NCBI GenBank assembly: GCA_964229355.1
Contig: CAXRDE010000019.1
Coordinates: forward strand, 389,557 to 453,556
Origin: Candidatus Sericytochromatia bacterium
Lineage (GTDB): Bacteria > Cyanobacteriota > Sericytochromatia > UBA7694
Direction: 5' to 3'
Length of the DNA: 64,000 nt
Program-made: the position numbers and the translations under genes
Part shown: piece after piece, positions 2,671-63,207 of the stretch
Layout of the letters: each line of letters opens with the position of its first letter
Numbering within the stretch: position 1 is the stretch's first letter
Notes under the pieces: model-generated
Told to the model about the DNA's origin: nothing
Seen by the model: only the letters and a program-made list of their open reading frames with translations
The model's database searches: none

Positions 2671-2902
2671 GAGTAAACTCCGTTTTCATAAATGTGTAAT
2701 GGGGTTGGAATACTTTGAGAATACCAAATAAAATGCCGTGAAAATGCAGGAGGCCACACTGAAATTGTTAGAAGTCTCACATCCGACGCGAAAAAAACAT
2801 AAGAGAAGTTTAATGTTTATATAACAATTATTAAAGTCTCTTGAATGCCAGGATTTGAACCCTTATGATAAAAATATCTTAAAAAGCGTAGGATGATGAA
2901 AT

Positions 2903-3448
2903 ATGAACTTAAAAGTGAGTGCCCCTCAACAAATTCAAGCTCTGTTTAAAGCTCAGGGCGTGCGTGAACTCAGTGTTCCCCTTGAAGAAGCCGCCAAACA
3001 CACTGAAAATAACAATATGGACGAAGTCTTTTTCTCTTTTGAAGGAAAGGATTACGTGGCCTTTGGAAATCAACTGAAGTTTGATCCCATGAATACCCTG
3101 GAAGCCGTTTCTTTAAGCCGACAGGGCGTGGATATTCTTTACACCCAGGATGAGAGCAACACCATGGGTGAAGGCGCTCGCTCCGCGCTCAATTCCACAC
3201 CGGGTAAAATTGCCAAATATGGTGCGACTGGCCTGGGTGCATTGGCTGGCGCAGGTCTGGCTCTATTTGCAGGGGGCATGGCCAGCCGTCCTCAATTCGT
3301 GGGTATGGGTGCTTTATTGACCACCACGGCCATTGGTGGAGGCATTGGTGCTGCCGTGGGTTATGGCGCGACCGCCACTGTGGGAGCACTCAAAGGCGCC
3401 GTCACTTTTGCTGACACCTCAAGCATTGACGCCATTACAAAAAAATAA
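2903..3448 (+). CDS. Hypothetical protein with C-terminal glycine-zipper (GxxxG) membrane segment
   Basis: Hydrophilic N-terminal ~110 aa, then GATGLGALAGAGLALFAGGMAS…AIGGGIGAAVGYGATATVGAL. RBS-like aggatga upstream. Confidence 0.6.
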   Translation: MNLKVSAPQQIQALFKAQGVRELSVPLEEAAKHTENNNMDEVFFSFEGKDYVAFGNQLKFDPMNTLEAVSLSRQGVDILYTQDESNTMGEGARSALNSTPGKIAKYGATGLGALAGAGLALFAGGMASRPQFVGMGALLTTTAIGGGIGAAVGYGATATVGALKGAVTFADTSSIDAITKK

Positions 3449-3578
3449 TCCCTTATTAGTGTTCTTCAAAAGCAGTCTGTACCTTTGACAGGCTGCTTTC
3501 TTACATCTAACCCCCTGCAGAACCCCTTTGATATCCCGTACAATAGAGACACGATTTTGATACGGAGAACTTTTTGAC

Positions 3579-4559
3579 ATGCGCATCTGGGACCTTTACA
3601 AACTGGCAATTGACATGGGCATTGCAACGGATCCGCGAGGCCAGGCTGCCGTGTTGCAATTGTTAGAAGACAAACAAAACAACTACTATGAGGCGCCCAG
3701 TGCCAGGCCCGGCAGTCAAGAAGATTTACTGGGCATGTTCGATAAAGAGTTACTCCATAATCCTTACCCTGACACCCGTGTTTTAGGCGGAACGCCAGAA
3801 ACAGAAGTCAAACATTTATTTGCAGGCATTGATGTGGGCACCGCTGAGTTAATGCTCGTGGATCGCTTGAATCAAAAAGGTGCGGGCATTGATCTGGTGA
3901 TGGCCCACCACCCCGAAGGCATTGCCCTGACCACGCTGGCCCAGGCCATGGGCTTACAGGCCGATATGTTTGCCTGTTGTGGTGTACCGATTAACGCTGC
4001 CGAACACATTTTGGCGGGTGAAGCTGAAAAAACCACTATTGATCTGGTGACCGGCAATTATAACCGGGCGGTAGATGCTGCGCGCTTGTTGGAATTGCCT
4101 TTTATGTGTGTACATACCCCCACCGATAACCTGGTGCAACACTATTGGGAACAGCGCTTTGCTCAGGAGAAACCCGCCACCCTGGGTCAGATTATGGATA
4201 TGTTGAACGGTGAGCCTGAGTATATTGAAGCCACTAAATTTGCGGCGGGCCCCCAACTGCTTGCGGGAAGCCCTGAGATGCGTCCGGGTAAAATCATGGT
4301 GGATATGACCGGGGGAACCGATGCTGGCCCCAAACTCTATAAGCGTCTGGGTGCGGCAGGCGTGGGTACTCTGGTGGCCATGCACATGTCCAACGGGACC
4401 CTGGAAGTGATGCGTGAAAACCATATCAACGTGATTTTAGCAGGGCATATGTCCAGTGATTCTCTGGGGCTGAATCTCTATTTAGATGCGGTAGAAGCCC
4501 AGGGTGTAAAAGTGACAGCAGGTGCTGGCTTAACGCGTTTTAGCCGTCGCGCATCATGA
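3579..4559 (+). CDS. Hypothetical protein, possibly NIF3/YqfO-like dinuclear-metal family
   Basis: IDLVMAHHPEG (resembles the NIF3 ithHP motif), CVHTPTDN and AGHMSSDSLG motifs. Assignment from remembered family pattern only. Confidence 0.4.
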   Translation: MRIWDLYKLAIDMGIATDPRGQAAVLQLLEDKQNNYYEAPSARPGSQEDLLGMFDKELLHNPYPDTRVLGGTPETEVKHLFAGIDVGTAELMLVDRLNQKGAGIDLVMAHHPEGIALTTLAQAMGLQADMFACCGVPINAAEHILAGEAEKTTIDLVTGNYNRAVDAARLLELPFMCVHTPTDNLVQHYWEQRFAQEKPATLGQIMDMLNGEPEYIEATKFAAGPQLLAGSPEMRPGKIMVDMTGGTDAGPKLYKRLGAAGVGTLVAMHMSNGTLEVMRENHINVILAGHMSSDSLGLNLYLDAVEAQGVKVTAGAGLTRFSRRAS

Positions 4560-6559
4560 AACATTTAGCGCTTTACCGCAAGTGGCGTCCTCAGCGCTTT
4601 GAGGATCTGGTGGGACAGACCCATGTCTCTCGCACTTTATTAAACGCTATGCGCCTGGACCGTTTGGCCCACGCCTATTTATTCTGTGGGCCACGGGGCA
4701 CAGGCAAAACCAGTTCCGCGCGTCTTTTGGCCAAAGCCCTGAACTGTGAAAACCCTGTGGATTATGAACCCTGTAACCTCTGTCAAAACTGTGAGGAGAT
4801 TACCGCAGGCCACTCGCTCGACGTGATTGAAATCGATGCGGCCTCTAACCGGGGTATTGATTCAGCTCGCGACTTGCGGGAACAGGTGCGCTTTTCTGCC
4901 AGTGCAGGAAAATACCGCGTCTTTATTATTGATGAGTTTCACATGCTCACCAAAGAAGCCTTTAATGCGCTGCTCAAAACCCTTGAAGAACCCCCAGAAA
5001 AAGTGATTTTTGTGTTGGCTACCACTGAGCCACACGCCGTTTTACCCACCATTGTGTCGCGTTGTCAGCGCTTTGACTTTCAGCGTATTGGTGTCAGCGA
5101 TATGCGCCAATACCTGCGCAAAATTGCTACCGCAGAACACATTGGTATTTCTGATGCGGCCCTTGATGCTTTATCCCGTAAGGCCAATGGGGGATTGCGC
5201 GACGGCATGAGTTTGTTGGATCAGGTGCAGGCCATTGGGGAGCCCGGTGAACCCCTGCCCGATAAACTGGTGTACCTGACCCTGGGGCTGGTGGAAGAAA
5301 ACGCGCTGATTGCCTTGTTGGAAGCGGCTTTCTCGGGGGATGCCGAAACGCTGATTCACAATACACGTCTGCTGTTAGAACAAGGTCACGATGCCCTGCA
5401 GGTGGTACAAGAACTGATTCAATTGCTGCGTCATTTAAGTTTGGCCCATCTGCCCGAAGAGACCCTGGTGCAATTGAGTGTGCCAGCCCATCTGATCGAA
5501 GGGTTAAAGACCTTGTCAAAGACCGTATCACGGGGTGATCAGGTGAACGCCCTGGAATTGCTTCTTCGTACCGGAGACCGTTTGCACCATTGTGCCCAGC
5601 CCGATATTTGGCTGGAAGCCGATCTGTTGTGTTTGTGTTTGCAGAGTGAGGCAGTCCTGTTAAAACGGGTAGAACACTTAGAAAAGCAATTGCAAGCGGG
5701 GGTTCGCCCGGCAGCGACGAGTGCCCCGTCCACTCAGCGGCCTGTGCAACAGCCTCCTGGCTCTGTCAGCCCAGCACCCGCCATGCGCTCACCTGAGCCA
5801 GCGAGGCCTATTGTGTCGGCACCACTACCCTCAGTGCCTGCCGAGGCGACTCCCCTTGAGGTGAGTCCGGCCCCACCCCACCAGCACGAGATTACCGAAC
5901 AGGTAGTGCCGCTGAACACTCAGGATCCACGGGCTTTATGGGATGCGTTTGTAGAGGCTGTAAAAAACCATCAAAAACCCGTGATTGGCTTTTTGATGAA
6001 TGGTCATCTGGCCCATGTGGATACGCAAAACAAGACCTGGGTGCTGGCCTTTCAGGGACGTTTTCAGCGGGACCGTATTCAGCAAAAATTAAGCGATCGC
6101 AGTTTGCAGTCTCTGGTGTCTCAAATTATGGGCAGCCCCTTTGAGATTGAAGTCACCCTGGAGGGTGAAAAAAAAAACCGTGAACCCGCCCCGATAAAGC
6201 CCGCTGAACCCGTGGTCGTTCCTCAGGCCGCTCCTGCTCAGCACACTCCTGTCAAACTACCACCCGAAGCACCACACGCCCAGCCCCTTCCACAGGATGC
6301 GGTAGCGCCGGTCTGGAACGATGGGCAAGACTGGGATGATGATGACGAAATAGACGTTCATTATTCACCCGCAGAATTACATGGTCATGGTGTACCTGAA
6401 CTGTTGCCTCGCGCTGAGCAGCCTTCTCCAAAGCCAGAGCCGGTACCGTCCGCTTTAAGCCCTGAAGTCGAAGCCAATGCTGTGGAAGCTTTACCCATTG
6501 AGAGCTTACAAGAGGTGGCGGATATTTTTAAAGGAAAAATTGTGACCCGCAGGCACTAG
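4556..6559 (+). CDS. dnaX: DNA polymerase III subunit tau/gamma
   Basis: Walker A GPRGTGKTS, a 4-Cys zinc module CENPVDYEPCNLCQNC, DEFHML box, long Pro-rich linker, C-terminal tau domain and acidic tail. ATGA overlap with the upstream gene. Confidence 0.9.
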   Translation: MKHLALYRKWRPQRFEDLVGQTHVSRTLLNAMRLDRLAHAYLFCGPRGTGKTSSARLLAKALNCENPVDYEPCNLCQNCEEITAGHSLDVIEIDAASNRGIDSARDLREQVRFSASAGKYRVFIIDEFHMLTKEAFNALLKTLEEPPEKVIFVLATTEPHAVLPTIVSRCQRFDFQRIGVSDMRQYLRKIATAEHIGISDAALDALSRKANGGLRDGMSLLDQVQAIGEPGEPLPDKLVYLTLGLVEENALIALLEAAFSGDAETLIHNTRLLLEQGHDALQVVQELIQLLRHLSLAHLPEETLVQLSVPAHLIEGLKTLSKTVSRGDQVNALELLLRTGDRLHHCAQPDIWLEADLLCLCLQSEAVLLKRVEHLEKQLQAGVRPAATSAPSTQRPVQQPPGSVSPAPAMRSPEPARPIVSAPLPSVPAEATPLEVSPAPPHQHEITEQVVPLNTQDPRALWDAFVEAVKNHQKPVIGFLMNGHLAHVDTQNKTWVLAFQGRFQRDRIQQKLSDRSLQSLVSQIMGSPFEIEVTLEGEKKNREPAPIKPAEPVVVPQAAPAQHTPVKLPPEAPHAQPLPQDAVAPVWNDGQDWDDDDEIDVHYSPAELHGHGVPELLPRAEQPSPKPEPVPSALSPEVEANAVEALPIESLQEVADIFKGKIVTRRH

Positions 6560-7275: not shown

Positions 7276-8895
7276 ATGACCAAGTATATTTTTATTACCG
7301 GTGGCGTGGTGTCGGGCATTGGCAAAGGCATTGTGGCTTCTTCGCTGGGAAGGCTCTTAAAAAACCATGGCTTTAAAATTTCGCTGCTTAAACTCGATCC
7401 GTATATTAATTTAGATCCAGGCACCATGAGCCCTTACCAGCATGGTGAGGTATTTGTGACCGAAGATGGTGCAGAAACGGATCTGGATTTAGGGCACTAT
7501 GAGCGCTTTACCGATGTGCATTTGACCCGACAGAGCAATCTAACAACGGGGGCTATTTATTTGCGCGTCATTCAAAAAGAGCGCAAAGGGGATTACCTGA
7601 GTGGAACGGTACAGGTGGTGCCCCACATTACCAATGCCATTAAAGAGCATATTCATACGGCGGCCAGTAAAGACACTGACGTGGTCATTACGGAAATTGG
7701 GGGGACCGTTGGCGATATCGAAAGCTTGCCGTTTATTGAAGGTATTCGTCAATTTCGCAAAGATGTGGGCAAAGACAATATTCTCTATGTGCACGTGACC
7801 TGGATTCCCTACATTAAAGTGGTGGGTGAACTTAAAACCAAGCCCAGTCAACACAGCGTGATGGAGTTGCGTCGCCACGGGATTCAACCGGATATTTTGG
7901 TGTGTCGCAGCGAAAAAACCTTAAACAAGGGCATTCGCGAAAAACTCTCGGTGTTTTGCGATATTGACCTGGACGCGGTCATCCCATGCAAAGATGCCCG
8001 CTCGATTTATGAGGTGCCGGCCACACTCCACAAGCATGGTCTGACCGAACAGGTGCTGCACCGCTTGCATTTGACGCCACCCCGTGCCGAGATGGACTGG
8101 GAAGGTTGGGTGAGTCAACCCGGACAACTCAAAAAGCCCAGTCATCGGGTCAGTATTGCCCTGGTAGGTAAATATGTGCAGTTGCCAGATGCCTATTTAA
8201 GTGTGACCGAGTCCCTACACCATGCCGCAGCAGCCTTAGACACCGAACTCGATATCCAATGGGTGCACGCCGATGAAGAAGTTGAAAAACTGGGCACCGA
8301 GGTCTTGCAGAACGCTGAAGGTATTTTGGTTCCCGGTGGCTTTGGGGAGCGAGGTGTTGAAGGCAAAATCAGTGCAATCCGCTATGCCCGTGAACAAAAG
8401 CTTCCCTTTTTGGGGCTGTGTTTGGGCATGCAATGTGCGGTGATTGAATACGCACGTCACGTATGTGGCTTAGCAGCTGCCCACAGTGCTGAGTTTGCAC
8501 CCGATACCCCTTACCCCGTTATTGATCTCATGCCCGCCCAGCGGGATTTAGAAAACCTGGGAGGAACCATGCGTCTGGGAGCCTACCCCTGTAAATTGGA
8601 CCCGGCCTCTCAACTGTATGCGCTCTACGGGGCCGATATGATTCAGGAACGGCACCGCCATCGCTATGAGGTGAACAACCAATATCGAGAAACCTTAGAA
8701 AATCATGGTTTGCGCATCTCGGGCACCTCGCCAGATGGTTATTTGGTGGAATCTATTGAGTTGCCTGGGCACCCTTTCTTTGTGGCCGTTCAGTTTCATC
8801 CTGAGTTTCGTTCGCGCCCGAACCGTCCGGGGCCTTGCTTTAAGGGCTTTATTGCTGCCTGTTTACAGGCCAAAGGAGTGGAAGTATGTCTTTAA
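7276..8895 (+). CDS. pyrG: CTP synthase
   Basis: [20 protein letters not shown]-terminus. Glutamine amidotransferase region with GLCLGMQ and HPEF. The ORF track starts it at 7261; the internal ATG at 7276 matches the canonical N-terminus. Confidence 0.9.
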
Positions 8896-9323
8896 ATCCA
8901 ATTGCCGAAACCCAGGCCCGTCAACTGATGGATATGGCAGAGCAGGCCTATACCCAGGCCTATGCCCCGTATTCTCGCTTTCGGGTGGGGGCAGCACTGT
9001 TGACCGTTCCCGATGAAGCGGGACACAGTGAGGTATTCAAGGGCTGTAATGTTGAAAACGCCGCGTATAGTCTGGCCATTTGCGCCGAGCGGGTGGCCAT
9101 GAGTCAGGCGGTGGCCCAGGGGTATCGTCAATTTCAGGCCATTGCTGTGGTGGCTGAGCAAACCCAACCCTGTTTTCCCTGTGGTTCTTGCCGTCAATTT
9201 TTGAGTGAGCTGGCCCCTGATTTGGAAGTGATTATTCTGGAGGCCGATCGGCGTTTAACCCGTTACCGGATTGCCGATCTTTTGCCCTATGCATTCAACG
9301 CCGATGCATTGCCACCCACCTAA
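8886..9323 (+). CDS. cdd: Cytidine/deoxycytidylate deaminase family protein
   Basis: CAERVAM and PCGSCRQFL zinc-binding motifs. Overlaps the pyrG stop. Confidence 0.75.
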
Positions 9324-9370
9324 CAGAAGCCGTACACTGCTTACATCATCTGAAGAAAAGGATTCAAGTT

Positions 9371-10219
9371 ATGGAAATTAAAAAAGTTGCCATTCTGGGT
9401 CTGGGCACCATGGGCTCAGGCATTGCCCAGGTCTGTGCCCAATCCGGTTTAGAAACCGTGTGCTTTGACGTCAAACAAGCGTTTGTAGACGCAGGTATGG
9501 CACGCATTCAAAAGAATTTAGACTACGGTCTCAACAAAGGGAAATTCACAGAAGAACACGTGAAAAGTACCCAATCTAAACTGAGTACCACCACCGACCT
9601 CAATACCCTGACCGATGTGGATCTGGTGATTGAAGCCGTGATTGAAGACATTGCCATTAAAAAGCAGGTGTTTGCGCAACTGGACGCTGTGTGCCCTGCT
9701 CACACCCTGATTGCCAGTAACACTTCTTCACTGTCCATTACGGATATGGCCAGCGCCACCCAACGCCGCGATAAGGTTTTGGGACTGCACTTTTTTAACC
9801 CTGCTTTCTTGATGAAACTGGTGGAAGTGGTCAAAGGCTTAGAAACCTCTGACGAGACGGTGGCTGCGGCTTATGCTTTTGCTGAAACCCTGGGTAAAAC
9901 CGCAGTGCTGTCTAAAGACACGCCCGGTTTTATTGTAAATCTCTTGCTGATTCCTTATTTGCTGGATGCTGCACGGGTTTATGAAAATGGACTGGCTTCT
10001 GCTGAAGACATCGACAACGCCATGAAACTGGGTGCAGGTTACCCCATGGGGCCGCTAACCCTTATGGATATGATTGGCATTGACGTGTGTGTCAAGGTGG
10101 GCGATATTTTGTTTGATGCATACCGCGAGAGCAAATACAATGTACCGCCGCTGCTGCGTCGCATGGTGATGGCCGGTCATTTGGGCCGCAAGTCAGGCCA
10201 GGGCTTCTACGCCTATTAA
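9371..10219 (+). CDS. hbd: 3-hydroxybutyryl-CoA / 3-hydroxyacyl-CoA dehydrogenase
   Basis: Rossmann motif ILGLGTMGSGIA. HFFNPA and 3HCDH C-terminal domain. RBS aaaagga. Confidence 0.85.
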   Translation: MEIKKVAILGLGTMGSGIAQVCAQSGLETVCFDVKQAFVDAGMARIQKNLDYGLNKGKFTEEHVKSTQSKLSTTTDLNTLTDVDLVIEAVIEDIAIKKQVFAQLDAVCPAHTLIASNTSSLSITDMASATQRRDKVLGLHFFNPAFLMKLVEVVKGLETSDETVAAAYAFAETLGKTAVLSKDTPGFIVNLLLIPYLLDAARVYENGLASAEDIDNAMKLGAGYPMGPLTLMDMIGIDVCVKVGDILFDAYRESKYNVPPLLRRMVMAGHLGRKSGQGFYAY

Positions 10220-13267: not shown

Positions 13268-15616
13268 TTACGCTTCAAAGCGGGCCACAAAGGCCTCTTG
13301 TTCTGCGGTTTCAATGGCGCGGGGTGAACGCACACTGCGCACCTCTGCCAGCGCCTGATGAACCGGTAAACCTTTGGTGCGCAAATAACTGGCAGCCACC
13401 ATACCACTGCGCCCCAATCCGCCGACACAGTGCAAGAGCACATTGCCTTTTTGCGCCAGGGCTTCTTGAATCCAGTCCAATACCTGAAACATTTCGTCTT
13501 GTGAAGTGACACCCTGATCCACAATGGGCAGGTGATAGGTTTCAAAGCCCGCTTCACGGTAAGCGGTGAGCAGTTCAGGTACCCCGTAATCGTTCATTTC
13601 TTGCTGGCTGAGCAAGGGCACAATATGGGTGACCCCTGCCTGTTTAAGGCTTTGCAGGTCGGTTTTGAGAACGCGGTGGCGATCCCGACGGCCGGGCAAG
13701 AGGGTTAAACCCAGGCGACCGGGTGCGGTGCGCAGACGAGACAGCCAGGAGACCCATAACTCGCCCTGTTGGGTTTGCATGCGTGATTCAATTTCCTGGG
13801 CACACAAGGTGGCGCTATAAAGGGCCCACTTTTTCTGACGCTCACTGGCCTCAGGAAAGCTGAGAGTGTGGGCCGCGTAACGCAATTGTCCAATAAACAG
13901 TTGTAAAGGGTTGCGGTCACTGTGAATTAACTCACTGTAAAAGCCTCTCAGGGTGCGTAGGGTGCGATAGGCCCGGCGCAGATGGGGGTCTTCGATGGGC
14001 AGCATATCCAGGGTAGGTAGCGGTTTACGCAGATCGTCCACCTGCATTAAAAACTTGCTCAGTTCGAGGGCCTCACTCAGCGCCTCATCACTCTCAAGGG
14101 GAGTCATCAGGTAAAGTAAATCATTTTCAAGCTTGATCAGGTCGCGCAGGACATGGCCCCGATGGGCGTGAAAAAAGTCAATGAGCCAGATGTTTTCATG
14201 GTCGTCCACCACAATATTGGCCCCGTTGAGATCCCCGTGTACAAAGGACATATAGCAGCCGGTGGCGGGTTTGGCCGCTTGCAATTGGGGTAAGGTTTTT
14301 TCGTAAAATAGCGCCAGGTTGGGAAATTCGGGGGTATTGGGCAAGTCGCTAAAGCGCACCCGATCGGCCTGGGCATCGTTGACCAGAGCTTCCATATGAC
14401 GGCGAACAGAACCTGCTTTTTCGCTGGTGAATTCGTAGTAATCCAATAAATCCTGGTGTTCGTATTGGGCAGCAGCATAAAGGCGGCCCAATTGTTCCAC
14501 AAAAACGGTGTACAGCAGTTTGTCGAGATCTGTGTCGTTTAGGGCGTTTTCGGCCTGGTATAACGACTGAAAGGTTTGCGAAAAGGAATTGCTCATGGAG
14601 GCGTAGCGGTATTTGAGGGCTGCGCGATCCCCTTGTTCCACAAAGTCTACAATGCGGGGAGCGTTGTTGCCCAGCACGGACTCAATCTGTTCAAAGGCCA
14701 CACGCTCTTTGCCCAACAGGTGATGCCAGCCAATTTTCACCACGTGAGACACCTGACGGTGGCCGTACTGATCGCTGCTCTGGGAACCCAACACCTCGTT
14801 GCCAGAGTAACCGCCGCTGAGCCGTTGCAGTTTGACCACCCGAGAATCGCGGAACAGGTAACGCACCAGCTGGCTATCGGCTTCGTCAAGGGTGGGAAAA
14901 CTATTCAGAACCAGCACAGGGCGGGTAGAGGCTTTCCAGCCGGTCAGGGGTAACTCAATGGCCTGCCCGCCCAAAAAGCGCACAAAAGCGGCCAGCGAGT
15001 GAAACACTTTGACGCCCAGGAGCTTTTGCATGTTTTCTAAAGCCACAAAGTGTTGGGCCCGAGAGGCTCCTGCGGTCAGTGCTGAGCACACGCCCAGTTC
15101 AAATTGAGGGTACCGTGAGCTCAGTTCATAAGCCAAATAGGTGATCTTGGCTTCGGTCCATACGCCCATGAGACCCACGCGTAATTTGTCTTCGTTGGTG
15201 GCCCGGGCCGCCAGCGGGGCCAGCAGGGCTTCGAGATCGGTTTCGTGAAAGTCATTGAGCGTGGGGGTGTTAACAATGCCGACATTTTTGGTGTGGTGTT
15301 CGGGAATCGGAAAGGCAAAGGCTGCACCGGGTGTGTCTGCTTCGCAGTGCAATCCAAAATGGGTCAAATGATCCATTTGTTTTAAGTCCAGACCGTCATG
15401 CCAATCTCGCAGGTGAATCAGCTTCAGGGTTTCGTCGGGAAGGCGATAAGCCCATTCCATGATGCGGGCCACGGGACCTTCGCTGGGAATGTCACCCATC
15501 AGGCGACGGGCTTCTTCGGCTCCAATATGCAGGGCGTTGGGTAAGGCTTCGTGGCGGCGAATGGGTTTGACAAAATCGTTTTGCAAACATTGGGTGATGA
15601 GTAAAGCTTGGGTCAT
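13268..15616 (-). CDS. Three-domain fusion: isochorismatase-like (degenerate) + APH/protein-kinase-like + dual-specificity protein phosphatase
   Basis: N-terminus ALLITQCLQNDFV (isochorismatase QNDF box, but the catalytic Asp position is Cys). Middle FVHGDLNGANIVV … IDFFHA (kinase catalytic loop and DFG-like). C-terminus LLHCVGGLGRSGMVAASYL (CX5R P-loop) with upstream LPIVDQG acid loop. Confidence 0.7.
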   Translation of the reverse strand: MTQALLITQCLQNDFVKPIRRHEALPNALHIGAEEARRLMGDIPSEGPVARIMEWAYRLPDETLKLIHLRDWHDGLDLKQMDHLTHFGLHCEADTPGAAFAFPIPEHHTKNVGIVNTPTLNDFHETDLEALLAPLAARATNEDKLRVGLMGVWTEAKITYLAYELSSRYPQFELGVCSALTAGASRAQHFVALENMQKLLGVKVFHSLAAFVRFLGGQAIELPLTGWKASTRPVLVLNSFPTLDEADSQLVRYLFRDSRVVKLQRLSGGYSGNEVLGSQSSDQYGHRQVSHVVKIGWHHLLGKERVAFEQIESVLGNNAPRIVDFVEQGDRAALKYRYASMSNSFSQTFQSLYQAENALNDTDLDKLLYTVFVEQLGRLYAAAQYEHQDLLDYYEFTSEKAGSVRRHMEALVNDAQADRVRFSDLPNTPEFPNLALFYEKTLPQLQAAKPATGCYMSFVHGDLNGANIVVDDHENIWLIDFFHAHRGHVLRDLIKLENDLLYLMTPLESDEALSEALELSKFLMQVDDLRKPLPTLDMLPIEDPHLRRAYRTLRTLRGFYSELIHSDRNPLQLFIGQLRYAAHTLSFPEASERQKKWALYSATLCAQEIESRMQTQQGELWVSWLSRLRTAPGRLGLTLLPGRRDRHRVLKTDLQSLKQAGVTHIVPLLSQQEMNDYGVPELLTAYREAGFETYHLPIVDQGVTSQDEMFQVLDWIQEALAQKGNVLLHCVGGLGRSGMVAASYLRTKGLPVHQALAEVRSVRSPRAIETAEQEAFVARFEA

Positions 15617-16943: not shown

Positions 16944-18014
16944 GTGGAGCCGTTTCTTGTCCTCTTGATACTGGGGTGGTTACTGCGTCAGGGCTTGCAG
17001 CGCCAGGTGGAACGGGCCATTGCTCAGGACCATCTGGAGCGGGCTCTGGTCTGGGCCAGAGCATATGCCCTGTTATGCCCCACGCCCTTCAGTTTGGTAC
17101 AGTGGGGCAATCTGTTGGGGGATTTGCAAGCCTGGGAAGCCGCTCAGCATAAGTTTCGCTGGGCGCTGTGGCTGGGAGATAATCAGGGGGCTGTGCTGGG
17201 GTTGGGAACAGCTGCACTGGCGCTGGCCAGAACCCCGGAGCACAGTCAACAGGCCCATCGCTATTTTGCAACTTCCCAGGGACGCAATATACCGGAGATA
17301 CAGACCCTAACGGTGACGCAAAATCCAGAAATGGATCGGGCCTATTTGGCGCAATGTGCTGTGCAATACCTTCAGCAGGGTTGGGTTGTCCTGGATGATT
17401 TTTTAATACCCGAAACGGTCAATGCCTTGCACCAATGGTGCCAACAGCCTGGATTATGGCGGCACAGCTACCCAGGGTATGAGGGGGCGCATTTAGATGA
17501 TGGCCTTTCTCATCCTGCGATGTATGCCTTGGCTCAGCAATTGATTGTCGGTTTACCCGGTATTTTTGCGAACCACTTGCTCATGTACGCCTGGGCTTTT
17601 CGTTACCATGCCAATCATCAGGGGGTGGCCCTTCATCATGACAGTGCCCATGTGAATGTGAATCTGTGGCTGACCCCCGATCGCTACAATAGCGATCCTC
17701 ACACCGGTGGGCTTGTCTTGTACCCCGGTTCTCCCCCGGCGGCCTGGGATCTGGAACGCTACACCCTCAGCGCCGAGCAAATGGCGCAATGGATTCGCTC
17801 AGAAGCCCTGGAACCGGTGGTCATTCCTTACCGTCAGGGGCGCATGGTTTTGTTTAACTCCCGGTTTTTACACCAAACCCAGGATTTTCAGTTTCAGTTG
17901 GCCCCCCATCAACGGCGCCTCAATCTGACTTTGCTCTTTGGGCGGCAACCTTTGCGTTATCATCCGCGACAGGTTTTGCCTGCATCGTTGTTTCAGCAGG
18001 GTTTACAGACCTAA
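16944..18014 (+). CDS. 2OG-Fe(II) oxygenase-like protein with N-terminal helical-repeat region
   Basis: VVLDDFL, HHDSAHVNVNLW (HxD … H) and RMVLFNSRFLHQT (distal Arg). Start abuts the NMO stop. Confidence 0.5.
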   Translation: MEPFLVLLILGWLLRQGLQRQVERAIAQDHLERALVWARAYALLCPTPFSLVQWGNLLGDLQAWEAAQHKFRWALWLGDNQGAVLGLGTAALALARTPEHSQQAHRYFATSQGRNIPEIQTLTVTQNPEMDRAYLAQCAVQYLQQGWVVLDDFLIPETVNALHQWCQQPGLWRHSYPGYEGAHLDDGLSHPAMYALAQQLIVGLPGIFANHLLMYAWAFRYHANHQGVALHHDSAHVNVNLWLTPDRYNSDPHTGGLVLYPGSPPAAWDLERYTLSAEQMAQWIRSEALEPVVIPYRQGRMVLFNSRFLHQTQDFQFQLAPHQRRLNLTLLFGRQPLRYHPRQVLPASLFQQGLQT

Positions 18015-18406
18015 GGGGTGGGAAGCAGTGCGCCCCCGGCCAGACGAAACAAGCGTTGAAACAGCGCAGTGTCCATGCACTCGCTACCGTCAGCCAGTAC
18101 CTGGCGTTCCGGCCCCAAACCATTGCCACCCCGTGCTCCGGGTGTGGTGTCAGACTGGGGCAATGGGTTTAAAAAGTGGACCCGATCAGAAGAGAGAGAT
18201 TGCACAATGACCTGGTTATAGGTGTAGGTCTGGTCTCCGATTTGCTCGTACCACGGCAATTCCACATAGACGGCCTGAGCGGGTGTTGTGTGTAAAAATT
18301 CAGCCAATCTCTGGTAATCCAGGCACACTTCAAATTGGCCACCATGCAGTTGCGCTTCCAATCGCCCCAGCTTATCTAAACGGCTTTTGAGGGCTTCTTG
18401 TGACAT
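18011..18406 (-). CDS. Small hypothetical protein translationally coupled to the upstream cysteine protease (candidate inhibitor or immunity protein)
   Basis: ATGA start/stop overlap with the 411-aa protease gene. 131 aa. No recognised motifs. Confidence 0.5.
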   Translation of the reverse strand: MSQEALKSRLDKLGRLEAQLHGGQFEVCLDYQRLAEFLHTTPAQAVYVELPWYEQIGDQTYTYNQVIVQSLSSDRVHFLNPLPQSDTTPGARGGNGLGPERQVLADGSECMDTALFQRLFRLAGGALLPTP

Positions 18407-19641
18407 TAATGGGTCACCTCAGTGACGGTATTGGCCGGGGTCTGTTTGTCGTCCCAGCCCCAATCATCAATGCTGATGGCCGACTGTACATACTTTTTAA
18501 AGTCATCCACGGGCATGGTGTACTGTTCACCCCAGGTATTAATAATGACCTGATCATTTTTCTTGTCAATGCCGGTCACCAGCACCGCATGACCTTTAAA
18601 GCTAATGACTGCTGAACGCCCTCGGGCCACTTCGTCCTCGACGTAGCTGTAGAGGCTGCTGCCTGAATACATACTGTCTACCTGATAATCTGCTCCCATG
18701 ACTTCTCCCAGGGCATAATTGGTGTCATCGGAGTAAAGACCTGAATAATCATTCCAAAAGCTTTCGTTTTTATCCGCTTTGCTGTTGTAGGTCTGATCCA
18801 CCCCCACATTATTACCCAGGTCCATCAGTGCGTTTTGCATGATGCGAGCTGAAAAATTCCGGTTGTCATTGGTGTCGTCTTTCCAGGTGTCGTTCGGAGG
18901 CAGCGGGTCGCCACCGGTGGTGGTATAGGTTTTTCCCTCGCCCAACTGGGTAAGCGCCTGGGCATAGGTGGTGGGTTTTTCAAGGGCCCATTTCATTTGG
19001 ACGGCGGTGGCCGCGCAGGTGCCTTTGTTGGCCTGGTCAATGTTGGAGGGGTAGGCCATATCGCCTAAGGCGTTGCGCACCAGTTGTTTGGCATTAACAC
19101 CGTCATCGGGTTGGTTGCGGCTTAAAAAGTCTTGAAGGGTTTTTGCTACCTTGTTGGCCGTGGCCAGGCCATGACGTTCTTTGATCTTTGCTAAATCCCG
19201 TAAAACATTGGCGTACTGTGCTCCCCCGACGCCTGTGGGAGCCAGTTGGTCTGAAAGCCCTTTGATGGCTTCTGCCCCTTTCCATTTATCGTCGACACCT
19301 AATTTTTGGCGTAAGACTTCTTGAGAAGCCAGACCCGGTGTGTCATCGCCGGGGTCAGCATAGGCTTTGAGTGAGCTTTTGTAGGTCTTGGGCGTGGCAT
19401 TGGGCTCATCGGGAAAACGCATCATATTGGGATCCACTTCAGCGGTCATCACCAGGTTAAATTGTGGATTGTCCTCAATCTTCATGCCGGGCAGCGGTAC
19501 AAAATCTTTGGGTTTGATCTCCTGGGCGGGTGTTTCTTTCAGGCGATCAGTGATGCCCTGTAATGGGTTGTTTTGCACACCGGACGTGTTGCGTGAAATG
19601 GATGTCATTCTGGTTTTCCCCTCGATTTCGTATAAATTCAC
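18406..19641 (-). CDS. Papain-fold cysteine peptidase with ~200-aa N-terminal region, no Sec signal
   Basis: Q-x5-C (DQANKGTCAATAV), His in FKGHAVLVTG and Asn in INTWGEQY (papain NSWG-like) with papain-like spacing. Confidence 0.65.
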   Translation of the reverse strand: MNLYEIEGKTRMTSISRNTSGVQNNPLQGITDRLKETPAQEIKPKDFVPLPGMKIEDNPQFNLVMTAEVDPNMMRFPDEPNATPKTYKSSLKAYADPGDDTPGLASQEVLRQKLGVDDKWKGAEAIKGLSDQLAPTGVGGAQYANVLRDLAKIKERHGLATANKVAKTLQDFLSRNQPDDGVNAKQLVRNALGDMAYPSNIDQANKGTCAATAVQMKWALEKPTTYAQALTQLGEGKTYTTTGGDPLPPNDTWKDDTNDNRNFSARIMQNALMDLGNNVGVDQTYNSKADKNESFWNDYSGLYSDDTNYALGEVMGADYQVDSMYSGSSLYSYVEDEVARGRSAVISFKGHAVLVTGIDKKNDQVIINTWGEQYTMPVDDFKKYVQSAISIDDWGWDDKQTPANTVTEVTH

Positions 19642-20951: not shown

Positions 20952-21024
20952 GCCGATGTAGCTCAACTGGTAGAGCAACGGTTTTGTAAACCGTAGGTCG
21001 TAGGTTCGAGTCCTATCATCGGCA
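20952..21024 (+). tRNA. tRNA-Thr (anticodon TGT)
   Basis: Acceptor GCCGATG/CATCGGC, anticodon stem ACGGT/ACCGT, loop TTTGTAA. Confidence 0.85.
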
Positions 21025-21036
21025 CTGCCCAATCAT

Positions 21037-21119
21037 GGGAGAATGGCCGAGTGGTTAAAGGCGGCAGACTGTAAATCTGCTCACGTTCGTGTACGCTGGT
21101 TCGAATCCAGCTTCTCCCA
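21037..21119 (+). tRNA. tRNA-Tyr (anticodon GTA)
   Basis: GGGAGAATGGCCGAGTGG…, anticodon loop CTGTAAA, long variable arm, 83 nt. Confidence 0.85.
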
Positions 21120-21124
21120 TACTT

Positions 21125-21196
<72 letters not shown>

Positions 21197-21262
21197 CTTT
21201 TTTATATCTATAAAATAGTAGCAGTACACGTACACACGACAATAAAGGAACTAAACAATAAC

Positions 21263-60298: not shown

Positions 60299-61363
60299 AT
60301 GACAAGTGCACTTGAAAACACATTAGCAGGCTGTTTGGTGGGAACCGCCATCGGCGATGCTCTGGGATTACCTGCAGAAGGTTTATCGCGAGAGCGTCAG
60401 TTTCGCATCTATCCTGACCTGGATCGTTACCGTTTCTTTTTTGGTAAGGGCATGACCTCTGATGACAGTGAGCATACCTTTATGTTGGCCCAGGCGCTCA
60501 TCTCTTCTCGGCAAACCCCGGCCCAATTGCAGCAGCGTTTTAGCTGGAAGTTGCGCCTGTGGTTATTGGGCTTGCCTGCGGGGCTAGGTGGCACCACCTT
60601 AAAAGCGATTTTACGGCTCTGGCTAGGCATTCCGCCCGAGCGCAGCGGGCTTTTTTCGGCGGGCAATGCGCCCGCCATGCGCAGCGCGATTCTGGGGATT
60701 GTGTATGGTCATGATCTGCAAACCCTGCGCAATTATGTGCGGGCGATAACGCGCTTAACCCATACTGATCCGGCGGCGGAATACGGGGCCATGGCGGTGG
60801 CGCTGGCGGCCTCGCTGGGGGCCCGCTACCAACGGGTGGACCCTGAGCAGTATTACCAGTATGTGAAACAGGCCTGCCGCAATGACGACAGCAATTTTAT
60901 TGTGCTCATGCGCAAGACCACCCGCTCGGTGCAAAACAAAGAGAGTCTGCGGGAGTTTCTGCTGCGTCTCAACTGCGGCAGCGGCATCAGCGGCTATATT
61001 CAGCACACGGTGCCTGCGGTTATTCACATCTGGTTAACCCATCAAGATAATTTCCGTCTGGCACTGCTAGAGACCATTCACGCCGGTGGCGACACCGACA
61101 CCACCGCGGCGATTATGGGGGCGATTATGGGGGCGCGGGTAGGCTTTGATGGCCTACCTCAGGATTGGGTGAACGATCTGATTGAGTGGCCCCGCAATAT
61201 CGAATGGCAGCGCGAGCTGGCCAGACGGCTGGCGGAGTCTTTAGACACCGATGAATTGCAAAAAGAGCTGCCGGTTAACGTACCGGGTTTGGTGCTGCGC
61301 AATGTCTTCTTTATGTTTTGGGTTATCTTGCATGGCTTTCGCCGTTATTTGCCCCCGTATTGA
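60299..61363 (+). CDS. ADP-ribosylglycohydrolase (ARH/DraG) family protein
   Basis: N-terminal LAGCLVGTAIGDALGLPAEG, C-terminal HAGGDTDTTAAIMGAIMGA metal-binding Asp/Thr cluster. Confidence 0.7.
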   Translation: MTSALENTLAGCLVGTAIGDALGLPAEGLSRERQFRIYPDLDRYRFFFGKGMTSDDSEHTFMLAQALISSRQTPAQLQQRFSWKLRLWLLGLPAGLGGTTLKAILRLWLGIPPERSGLFSAGNAPAMRSAILGIVYGHDLQTLRNYVRAITRLTHTDPAAEYGAMAVALAASLGARYQRVDPEQYYQYVKQACRNDDSNFIVLMRKTTRSVQNKESLREFLLRLNCGSGISGYIQHTVPAVIHIWLTHQDNFRLALLETIHAGGDTDTTAAIMGAIMGARVGFDGLPQDWVNDLIEWPRNIEWQRELARRLAESLDTDELQKELPVNVPGLVLRNVFFMFWVILHGFRRYLPPY

Positions 61364-63207
61364 GTGCTCTCTAAGGCAAAGATTTTATCTTCTAAAATCT
61401 GAATTTCAGAGCGGTAGCGCTCGCTGCTCTGGCGTAGGGTCTCCATGTCTTTGGACTGGCCTTCGCTATGCTTTTTCAGGCGATTGTACAGCTGTTCCCC
61501 TTGTTTGAGTTTCTCTTTTAACTCTTCAATGGTTTGGTTGCGGCGCTGTTGCTGAGCACCCATCAGTTGCAGAGACTGGCGCAATTGCTCAATTTCCAAT
61601 TGAAACTGCTCTGCATCCATGTCCGCCAGTTTTTCTTCGAGGTTGCGTTTGTCAAAGGCGAGTTGGGCCTTGTCTTCGCGCAATTGCTCTAAGCTATCTC
61701 TCAGATATTCCATCTCTAAGCGCAACTGATCTCGCTCCTGGGTCATTTGCACCAACACCTGTTGGTCTTCATCGTGTAGCTCTTGTGCGTATTCTAAATC
61801 CGAGAGCTTGTCCTCTAGGGTTTCACTCAGTAAGGCCATTTCCCGCTGGTGACGCTGAAGTTCTTCGGCCAGCTCTTCAATCATTTGCTGGGCCTGGTTC
61901 AGACGTTCAGCACGGGTGTTGAGTTCTTTGTACAAACGCTGAATCTCAGAACTGCGTTCGGCTTTGTCTAAATTGAGTCCCAGGTTGGCCTGCTCGATTT
62001 CGTCTTTGGCCTCAATCAGGGCCGCAATGATTTGCTGGGCTTCTTCTAAATTGGCGGGTAGATTATCTACCTTTTCGTTGAGCTTTTTGTACGCCACCGA
62101 TAACTCTCGCAGTTTCAGGCGGGCGTTTTTCATTTGGTCGCGCAGCTTCTTATTTTGCTCTTCTTTCTCGTGATTCAGCTGCATGAGTTTGCGCTTGTCT
62201 TTGGCCCATTGCTCTTCTTTTTTAAGTAGGCGCTCGTGAGATTGTTGAAAGCTCAGCACATTTTGTTCGAGCTCGTGCAATTGCTTCAGCTGGGACTTGG
62301 CGTTCTGCTCGCGCTCCTGGGATTGTGCGAGATCTTTTTGCAGGTGTTGTTGGTGGTTGTACATGAGGTGTAATTGCTCTTCGTATTCCACAATTTGCTG
62401 TCGCAGAGCCTGCTCATAATCCTGGGTTTTGGCCAGGGACTGGCTTAATGCATTGAGCTCACCGTGTAAGTGATCGTCATGGGCCTGAGGGTTTTTGGTT
62501 TCGGACAACTTCTTGCGCAGGGCATCGTTTTGGGTTTGCATTTGCTTCAGGCTGCCCTGGAGCTTTTCAATATCTGCCAGGGCGGCAGTGGCCCGTGACA
62601 CCGATTTGGGTACGCTGCGTTGGGCCAGTTGGTCTCTGAGCTGTTGGTTTTCGTGCTGCAGGCTTTTGATGCGCTGGGTTTGTTCGTCTTCGTCGTGTTG
62701 TTGCTGATTAAGTAAGATCAGGGTGTCGGTTTGATCGTTAAAGCGTTCGCGCTGTAAATAGTCCCAGAGGGCAGCCAGCAGCCCCACAAACAGGGCCAAC
62801 ACCAAAGGAAAGAGCAGATTGAAATCCAGCCATTGCACCGGCATCCGGTAATAAAAGCGGTAGTCGCCCTGGGGAGAGCTTTCGTAGGGTAGCGCTTCGT
62901 TTTTGAGCACAAAAGCCCCTTGCTGTTGGTGGGCCGTCGCCGAATTGCCCAGGTTGCTGGTAATGGCGACCCCGCCTGCATCGGCCACGATCACGGTCAG
63001 GGGCAACTGGCTTAAAAAACGTTCCACCTCTCCGTCTTCTTGATCTTGCAGCAGGCGACTCAGGCGAGGAATGGCCTGTTGTAAGGGAGCCAGTTGATCG
63101 GCGGGGGCAGCCGAACGAAACCCGAACCAGTACCAGCCCGCCATGGGTAGAAACAAACCGACGGTAATGCTAAAAACCAGTACAAGCGCGCGCAAGGGGT
63201 TTGACAT
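61345..63207 (-). CDS. Membrane-anchored long coiled-coil protein (two N-terminal TM helices, ~450-aa coiled coil)
   Basis: TM1 ALVLVFSITVGLFLP, TM2 LLFPLVLALFVGLLAAL. Heptad-rich Q/E/K/L remainder. Confidence 0.55.
   Translation of the reverse strand: MSNPLRALVLVFSITVGLFLPMAGWYWFGFRSAAPADQLAPLQQAIPRLSRLLQDQEDGEVERFLSQLPLTVIVADAGGVAITSNLGNSATAHQQQGAFVLKNEALPYESSPQGDYRFYYRMPVQWLDFNLLFPLVLALFVGLLAALWDYLQRERFNDQTDTLILLNQQQHDEDEQTQRIKSLQHENQQLRDQLAQRSVPKSVSRATAALADIEKLQGSLKQMQTQNDALRKKLSETKNPQAHDDHLHGELNALSQSLAKTQDYEQALRQQIVEYEEQLHLMYNHQQHLQKDLAQSQEREQNAKSQLKQLHELEQNVLSFQQSHERLLKKEEQWAKDKRKLMQLNHEKEEQNKKLRDQMKNARLKLRELSVAYKKLNEKVDNLPANLEEAQQIIAALIEAKDEIEQANLGLNLDKAERSSEIQRLYKELNTRAERLNQAQQMIEELAEELQRHQREMALLSETLEDKLSDLEYAQELHDEDQQVLVQMTQERDQLRLEMEYLRDSLEQLREDKAQLAFDKRNLEEKLADMDAEQFQLEIEQLRQSLQLMGAQQQRRNQTIEELKEKLKQGEQLYNRLKKHSEGQSKDMETLRQSSERYRSEIQILEDKIFALESTQYGGK

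Follow-up and report, generated by a model that had tools for sequence, protein, structure and literature searches.

The window analysed here, a 64,000-nucleotide (nt) stretch of a Candidatus Sericytochromatia genome (contig CAXRDE010000019.1), carries on its minus strand a gene for a predicted cysteine protease, followed directly by a small gene whose product appears to be a catalytically dead copy of half of the protease's own catalytic domain. Our tentative reading, which we put a little below an even chance, is that these genes form a conserved, coupled module of an active protease and a paralog-derived pseudo-peptidase that acts as an inhibitor or immunity-type regulator.

Two overlapping genes encode the protease and its partner

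A first-pass annotation of the window had placed two open reading frames (ORFs) at 18406-19641 (411 amino acids [aa], GTG start) and 18011-18406 (131 aa), and both are present on the minus strand. Judged by homology, both are real genes and not chance ORFs, because homologs exist at 31-99% identity, in about 20 loci for the protease and 86 proteins for the partner family. The 411-aa frame exists, but its GTG start probably makes the protein too long. Close protease homologs are 400 aa each and begin with MTS(I/V)S, and a GAGGGG sequence precedes ATG 19608, which makes 18406-19608 the likeliest coding sequence (CDS). The annotation had also described an ATGA overlap of stop and start. The junction in the window is instead TAATG, with an overlap of 1 nt; ATGA overlaps of 4 nt are seen in the related loci L004, L009, and L031. 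This sharing of stop and start suggests that translation of the protease and partner is coupled. The features of the pair are as follows.

18406..19608, minus strand: probable protease CDS, 400 aa from ATG 19608, with stop TAA at 18406-18408; the alternative GTG at 19641 gives 411 aa
19618..19623, minus strand: GAGGGG, Shine-Dalgarno-like, 9 nt 5' of ATG 19608 (read from the sequence)
18404..18408, minus strand: TAATG junction of protease stop (TAA, 18406-18408) and partner start (ATG, 18404-18406), with base 18406 common to both
18415..18420, minus strand: GAGGTG, Shine-Dalgarno-like, for the partner gene; within the 3' end of the protease CDS and 8 nt 5' of the partner ATG
18011..18406, minus strand: partner CDS, 131 aa, predicted Cys-less papain/C39-like pseudo-peptidase

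The base composition of the module does not point to recent transfer: the G+C content of the module (0.485-0.537) is like that of its flanks (0.455-0.565).

The first gene encodes a predicted clan-CA cysteine peptidase

The product of the first gene is a predicted active clan-CA cysteine peptidase in the C39-like structural group, and it represents a new sequence family. The motifs quoted in the first-pass annotation (DQANKGTCAATAV, FKGHAVLVTG, and NTWG) are all present. In an alignment of 11 protease family members, Q192, C198, H340, and W359-G360 are invariant and N357 is almost so. The Gln, Cys, His, and Asn (or Asp) were also kept in every locus recovered later, amounting to about 20 loci in several phyla. 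An AlphaFold2 model has a mean predicted local distance difference test (pLDDT) score of 66.5 and a predicted template modelling (pTM) score of 0.70, with residues 85-265 at about 90. The protein divides as follows.

19357..19608, minus strand: residues 1-84, predicted disordered N terminus (pLDDT <50) with no signal peptide
19039..19356, minus strand: residues 85-190, helical domain of five to six helices within residues 96-185 (pLDDT ~90)
18469..19038, minus strand: residues 191-380, papain/C39-like catalytic domain (AlphaFold2 model and conservation)
19033-19035, minus strand: Gln192 codon, conserved at all loci
19015-19017, minus strand: Cys198 codon, at the N terminus of helix 195-210 in the model; conserved at all loci
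18589-18591, minus strand: His340 codon, at the start of strand 340-348 in the model; conserved at all loci
18538-18540, minus strand: Asn357 codon, in strand 353-358, next to the His340 strand; Asp in L003 and L014
18409..18468, minus strand: residues 381-400, tail DDxGxDxRxTxA...V(T/G)(H/DR), predicted disordered (pLDDT <50)

In this model, the protein has the arrangement that defines clan CA: Q192-x5-C198 with the Cys at the start of a helix, the His and Asn on neighbouring strands, and an overall fold similar to solved clan members. The conserved residues and the model agree with the first-pass call of a papain-fold cysteine protease with a Gln/Cys/His/Asn active site. Its claim of papain-like spacing also held, with 142 residues between Cys198 and His340 compared with 134 in papain.

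Family assignment succeeded only in part. The nearest Pfam model is Peptidase_C39_2 (PF13529), yet its score of 17.4 bits (E 0.0067) lies below the gathering threshold of 24, and no library model passes. These C39_2 matches are weak but consistent, occurring in 7 of the 11 family members. PF03412 (Peptidase_C39) is absent from the Pfam families reported at E values up to 1, and NCBIfam gave no match. Sequence matches to PDB entries (AvrRpt2, cathepsins, and 9l5u) are marginal and limited to the His-Asn segment.

The protease has no hydrophobic segment: the highest Kyte-Doolittle mean over 19 residues is 0.74, where about 1.6 was the yardstick for a transmembrane segment. The reported lack of a Sec signal is thereby borne out, with neither a signal peptide nor a transmembrane segment found. 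Made without a signal peptide, the protease would first appear in the cytoplasm of the producer.

In the family alignment, residues 1-84 hold the semi-conserved motifs EPNxMxFP and KTYK..YADPGD, and R145-H146 (in ERHG) of the helical domain is invariant. The helical domain is possibly a pro-, targeting, or substrate-binding domain. The C-terminal tail (consensus DDxGxDxR(K/Q)TxAGxxTxxGD(R/Q/H)) is kept with or without a partner gene, including in L014 and L016-L021, and it may be an export signal or an autoinhibitory tail. A role for it as a partner-binding motif was ruled out, because it is equally conserved among orphan proteases.

The partner is a Cys-less paralog of the catalytic domain

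The relationship between the two products is carried by longer proteins that match both families. P0099 (826 aa) matches the Cys half of the protease hidden Markov model (HMM) at residues 139-283 (QDRHGTCAAEAISIQL; E 4e-10) and the partner HMM at residues 309-386, with the His intact (HELHAINVIGYD...FRNP...GPARR; E 3.5e-12). A second partner-type module, in which the His is replaced, occupies residues 438-538 (E 2e-11). P0099 therefore looks like a single-chain version of the two-gene arrangement in the window, with an apparently active protease domain. Locus L031, from an Armatimonadota lineage, was reached by a metagenome scan with a subfamily alignment of the partner. It encodes a 735-aa protein whose Cys half matches the protease HMM and whose C-terminal half matches the partner HMM (GRHRILVTKVENGRVFFRNPWG), and a 136-aa partner gene overlaps the stop of this protease by 4 nt. 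Because the P0099 and L031 proteins match both HMMs, the partner family is, on this profile evidence, a paralog of the protease His/Asn half with its flanking helices. Direct hhalign comparison of the partner with the whole protease family profile did not detect the relationship, nor any N-terminal similarity.

These long proteins have other features as well. P0099, whose relatives are P0124 and P0125, has a hydrophobic stretch that by eye resembles a transmembrane helix (residues 575-597, approximately) and, at its C terminus, about 230 aa of uncharacterised sequence. In the L031 protease (2797-5004), Met, Pro, and Gln are extremely abundant over the N-terminal 350 aa or so (for example, MMMMAPMLTSLASTMMMAQAMSMPP), a stretch that includes a borderline transmembrane-like segment (Kyte-Doolittle 1.71).

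The partner itself matched nothing in Pfam, NCBIfam, PADLOC, or PHROG, and it has no hydrophobic segment (highest 19-residue Kyte-Doolittle mean, 0.89). Its structure model, built from a 14-sequence alignment, is very confident (pLDDT 93.1, pTM 0.87). An exhaustive search of 1.84 billion representatives with the partner HMM gave 93 matches, about 60 of them standalone proteins of 113-159 aa. The long proteins P0039, P0047, and P0094, with many matches to the partner profile, were discarded as FG-GAP repeat proteins whose matches are repeat artefacts.

A residue census of 86 family members found Cys in no column more than 7 times. The position of the catalytic His is His in 37 of 86 and Asn in 28, and that of the catalytic Asn is Asn in 76. 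Further hallmarks are W52 (84 of 86), R101 (83 of 86), and G98 and P99 (76 of 86 each). The corresponding codons in the window are these.

18251-18253, minus strand: partner W52
18215-18217, minus strand: partner N64, at the catalytic-His position
18167-18169, minus strand: partner N80, at the catalytic-Asn position
18104-18115, minus strand: partner loop G98-P99-E100-R101

Because it has no catalytic Cys, the partner cannot be a cysteine peptidase. It is a predicted pseudo-peptidase that keeps the His/Asn beta-sheet half (N80, W52, and the GPxR loop) without the nucleophile, and in the clade of the window the catalytic His has been lost too. A C39-like fold without catalytic Cys is also what characterises inactive C39-like domains (CLDs) of the HlyB type. 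The first-pass annotation had allowed that the small ORF might be a conserved housekeeping protein; it is instead a Cys-less papain/C39-like module paralogous to the protease. Gly-Gly sequences in the partner loop (ARGGNG) and in the protease helical domain (TGVGG) were considered as a C39 cleavage or pseudo-substrate site and rejected, as they are not conserved across the paired clades.

The pair is conserved in at least two phyla

Members of the protease family are very scarce: among 5.8 billion clusters, a word-indexed search returned 10 homologs. A scan of reference genomes found it in Sericytochromatia, in metagenome-assembled genomes (MAGs) of Vulcanimicrobiota/Eremiobacterota/Xenobia, and in two MAGs labelled Burkholderiales. 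The nearest reference locus, in a Candidatus Sericytochromatia MAG (L012/L001), has a protease 80% identical to that of the window and shares with it the nuo genes, transaldolase, the pair, a PhyH-like gene, NMO, and a TCAD9-phosphatase gene.

The first-pass suggestion of tight coupling between the protease and the small ORF was upheld by comparison. Protease and partner genes are adjacent and co-directional at 11 distinct loci, with spacings of -4 to +20 nt. The genes overlap by 1 nt in the window, L001, L011, and L027 and by 4 nt in L004, L009, and L031; a gap of 13 to 20 nt separates them in L007, L010, L013, and L026. These loci span Sericytochromatia and relatives and one Armatimonadota lineage (at least two phyla), and outside close relatives their flanking genes differ. 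Pairwise distances of protease and partner are correlated (Pearson r = 0.76, 45 comparisons), and the partner diverges faster (mean distance, 0.60 versus 0.46 for the protease).

Distant proteases (L003, L014, and L016-L022) have no detectable partner. One genome (a 5.18-Mb contig, ERZ21878443) holds two family proteases, the orphan L003 and the paired L026. The L003 protein (8001-9773) is 590 aa and that of L026 (5001-7414), which is followed by the partner gene, is 643-659 aa; both have long Lys/Asn-rich N-terminal extensions. Two further genes of L007 that look like a pair (380 and 125 aa) have no relation to the protease or partner family.

A chagasin-type inhibitor gene follows some of the pairs

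In one Sericytochromatia subclade, the pair is part of a three-gene cluster. A gene of the chagasin family (Inhibitor_I42), with an NPSTGY motif and no signal peptide, lies directly after the pair in L007 (2831-3364), L008 (1922-2455), and L013 (1806-2351), and each product has a disordered N-terminal extension of about 70 aa. The window partner is unrelated to I42, and a profile built from two of the I42 proteins found no I42 gene among window ORFs of at least 50 aa. An I42 gene at this position fits an active protease that needs restraint, and it suggests that intracellular inhibition of the protease has been selected for.

Restraint by the partner and alternative roles

We infer that the partner physically binds and inhibits the protease. 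The overlap of stop and start would tie synthesis of the partner to that of the protease. The partner would then bind the protease, or an inherited substrate-binding surface, and would keep the protease in check until export, processing, or a trigger. This could be a form of paralog mimicry, with the partner occupying a substrate or dimer interface of the protease. Four observations lead us to favour restraint: the downstream, coupled position resembles that of the second gene in staphopain/staphostatin, Cpe1/Cpi1, and StbD-CT/StbI; evolution is faster in the partner than in the protease; related proteases manage without a partner; and at two loci an I42 inhibitor gene has been selected beside the same protease. 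The existence of proteases without a partner also argues that the partner is not needed for folding or activity of the protease.

Several observations weigh against restraint or soften the structural case for it. The C-terminal sheet of the protease model is of moderate confidence (pLDDT 64-74), and a Foldseek search of the partner against the PDB gave no significant match (best E 0.06). Standalone partner genes without an upstream protease occur in L029 (7001-7396, between a radical-SAM gene and hflX) and L023 (584-976), and so the pseudo-peptidase family exists outside the pair too (five gene neighbourhoods of distant partner-family members were examined). A protease and a dead module in one chain, as in P0099, would be unusual for an immunity protein, and this fusion is more in keeping with a domain that acts in cis, for regulation or substrate binding. 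A partner that sufficed as inhibitor would make I42 redundant in L007 and L013. Also, dead protease paralogs are more often scaffolds or activators (M16 alpha/beta and MPN+/MPN- pairs) than inhibitors.

Much of this would suit a different role, which we rate somewhat below restraint and as the main alternative: the partner could be a positive subunit that forms a heterodimer with the protease for substrate recognition or allosteric activation. The module would then be an intracellular two-subunit processing protease and not a restrained toxin. The vestigial active-site neighbourhood is kept across the partner family (N80, the His, W52, and R101, at the frequencies given above), which suggests that the partner still binds a ligand or peptide. 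The HlyB CLD binds its substrate without cutting it, inactive M16 and MPN- paralogs pair with active ones, and dead protease paralogs in general tend towards a scaffold role. The P0099 fusion points the same way, as do the housekeeping chromosomal surroundings with synteny stable among close relatives, and a true inhibitor gene after the pair in L007 and L013 would free the partner for another role. However, the partner is absent from many related proteases and is thus dispensable for the activity of the family, it evolves faster than the protease, and no substrate gene (for example, for a GG-leader peptide) was identified nearby.

It is improbable that the genes are a classical interbacterial effector-immunity pair, in which the protease is exported to kill neighbours (through cleavage of Gly-Gly loops in GyrB/ParE, for instance) and the partner is the immunity protein. 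The order of toxin and then immunity gene, with overlap, would be as expected, and lone partner-like genes look like orphan immunity genes. StbD-CT, too, combines a helical domain at its N terminus with a flexible linker (bioRxiv 10.64898/2026.05.07.723447), and the best PDB match of the family profile is 9l5u, a DUF4150 (PAAR-like) domain protein, at a nonsignificant E value of 0.67. However, the first-pass idea of specialised export or a toxin setting was not substantiated: Pfam and NCBIfam revealed no PAAR, VgrG, Rhs, CdiA, WXG, or other trafficking domain in the protease and matched nothing in its residues 1-190, the protease has no signal peptide, and there are no polymorphic cassette arrays. 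The ORFs tested in the 64-kb window included no secretion system or export machinery. Furthermore, the immunity proteins of C39 toxins (Cpi1, StbI, and Imm-SuFu) have unrelated folds (PMC12136450; bioRxiv 10.64898/2026.05.07.723447; PMC3482391), P0099 joins the presumed immunity module to a protease in one chain, and the family is very rare, with its 10 close homologs in 5.8e9 sequences.

An anti-phage or abortive-infection module, in which the pseudo-protease holds the protease inactive until infection releases cleavage of host or phage proteins, is less probable still. The two-gene module does look mobile, with varied neighbourhoods across lineages; a conflict-system protein with TCAD9, kinase, and phosphatase domains is near the pair in the window, and PemK toxins are near L003 and L007. 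Against this, PADLOC gave no match to the partner and only E 0.048 to PDC-M55B for the protease, PHROG gave no match, no sensor domain was recognised, and the TCAD9 gene is unlinked to the pair beyond close relatives. Finally, the conservation data all but refute the notion that the genes are mere neighbours with unrelated functions: the 11 co-directional pairs (-4 to +20 nt) are independent, come from at least two phyla, and have otherwise unrelated flanks; the products are paralogous and diverge in a correlated way; and a fused version exists.

Surroundings of the pair in the window

The rest of the window is housekeeping chromosome (dnaX, pyrG, feoB, a uvrD-like gene, nuoJ-N, and tRNAs). 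No ABC transporter is fused to the protease, and none was found among its neighbours or the large window ORFs tested. Other features of the window are these.

13268-15616, minus strand: 782-aa protein with TCAD9 (E 5e-54), an APH-like kinase region, and a C-terminal dual-specificity/PTP phosphatase
16944-18014, plus strand: PhyH-like 2-oxoglutarate-Fe(II) oxygenase (E 2e-5) with an N-terminal extension of about 140 aa
20370-20804, plus strand: 144-aa coiled-coil protein with a lipoprotein-like N terminus (LCLMTGC); its start overlaps the transaldolase stop
20952-21197, plus strand: tRNA-Thr(tgt), tRNA-Tyr(gta), and tRNA-Thr(ggt), between the transaldolase operon and nuoJ; several spurious ORFs overlap them
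61345-63207, minus strand: 620-aa ORF with no Pfam match at E <=1e-5

The TCAD9 (ternary-complex-associated domain 9), kinase, and phosphatase domains of the 782-aa protein have been reported in NTP-dependent conflict systems. Synteny of its gene with the pair extends to L001 and L027; the gene is not near the pairs of L004, L007, and L009. The PhyH-like gene converges on the partner gene, and their stop codons overlap (18011-18014), which leaves no space for a terminator between them. The 144-aa coiled-coil gene is kept in the same position in L001, L027, and L028.

Comparison with known systems

Operons of a clan-CA protease and a small partner are known. The first-pass annotation had likened the pair to staphopain/staphostatin (C47) and SpeB/Spi (C10), and the likeness extends to a clan-CA protease gene followed by one for a small cytoplasmic partner. 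Staphostatin is a lipocalin-like eight-stranded beta-barrel and Spi is a prodomain homolog, and the staphopain and SpeB proteases carry a signal peptide and a prodomain. The analogy fails at these points: the window protease has no signal peptide or prodomain, and its partner is neither a barrel nor a prodomain homolog but a papain/C39-like module that resembles the catalytic His/Asn half and not the N-terminal region. Spi remains an example of an inhibitor that arose from part of a protease gene. The chagasin family (MEROPS I42) offers another parallel, in that I42 neighbours tie this protease family to papain-type inhibition.

Structurally, the closest toxins are StbD-CT/StbI (Citrobacter rodentium contact-dependent inhibition [CDI]; PDB 8ssk and 8ssm) and Cpe1/Cpi1 (E. 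coli type VI secretion system/CDI). They share with the window pair a C39-like Cys/His/Asp-type triad in a minimal papain fold and a small partner gene immediately 3', and StbD-CT also has a helical domain before the peptidase. They differ in having no significant sequence similarity to the window protease, which lacks a CdiA, PAAR, VgrG, or Rhs carrier. Cpe1 and StbD-CT cut Gly-Gly loops of GyrB/ParE, and such toxins were recently shown to inactivate type II topoisomerases (PMC12136450; bioRxiv 10.64898/2026.05.07.723447), which makes the target and specificity of the window protease family of interest. Neither immunity protein is papain-like: StbI is a five-stranded sheet with two helices (bioRxiv 10.64898/2026.05.07.723447), and Cpi1 has no structural homologs (PMC12136450). 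The window partner, in contrast, is a predicted paralog of its own protease. Cpi1 neutralises by exosite competition without occluding the active site (PMC12136450), and StbI binds opposite the active site (bioRxiv 10.64898/2026.05.07.723447). By analogy, a paralog that retained an ancestral interaction surface could neutralise its protease in a comparable way. Surveys of polymorphic toxins list immunity of the SuFu type for Tox-PL-C39 toxins; an immunity protein with a papain fold is not mentioned there (PMC3482391). In the parts of it available to us, a 2023 classification of papain-like proteins treats inactive members as scaffolds and says nothing of any that share an operon with an active paralog (PMC10318531).

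The C39 domains of PCAT/ABC exporters (ComA, LahT, and PCAT1) have the same Gln-x5-Cys spacing. The window protease differs from them in being neither fused to nor near an ABC transporter, in its subthreshold C39_2 score, and in its 142-residue Cys-to-His spacing, much above that expected for a domain of about 130 aa. The HlyB CLD shows that a C39 fold without Cys can bind and not cut, but it is the N-terminal domain of an ABC exporter, whereas the window partner is a standalone 131-aa protein encoded after its active paralog. The match to AvrRpt2, a C70 type III effector, is not significant in sequence; nothing pointed to a type III secretion system, and no logic of activation by a host cyclophilin can be inferred.

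The module is so far unannotated, has two genes that are sometimes fused, and occurs in Sericytochromatia, Armatimonadota, and related little-studied phyla; Eremiobacterota is another of the poorly studied lineages from which these two unannotated families come. In each characterised case compared (staphopain/staphostatin, SpeB/Spi, Cpe1/Cpi1, and StbD-CT/StbI), the partner has a fold with no relation to that of the catalytic domain. With a partner that is a degenerate copy of this domain, a protease regulator would have evolved by a new route. It is possible, although we hold it with some doubt, that the 131-aa protein is the first described papain/C39-fold pseudo-enzyme to serve as the dedicated partner of its own active paralog, be it as inhibitor or immunity protein or as obligate subunit. 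If it were an ordinary accessory protein, the finding would shrink to a new clan-CA family. Dead paralogs that regulate an active protease are known from bacterial M16B heterodimers, mitochondrial processing peptidase alpha/beta, MPN+/MPN- deubiquitinase pairs, and caspase-8/cFLIP, which have other folds and catalytic classes, none of them papain/C39. The module in the window would add a bacterial example of a papain-fold enzyme under the control of a pseudo-enzyme. Set beside these systems, the protease is a new family within a well-known clan, and the element without parallel is its partner, a pseudo-peptidase apparently derived from a paralog.

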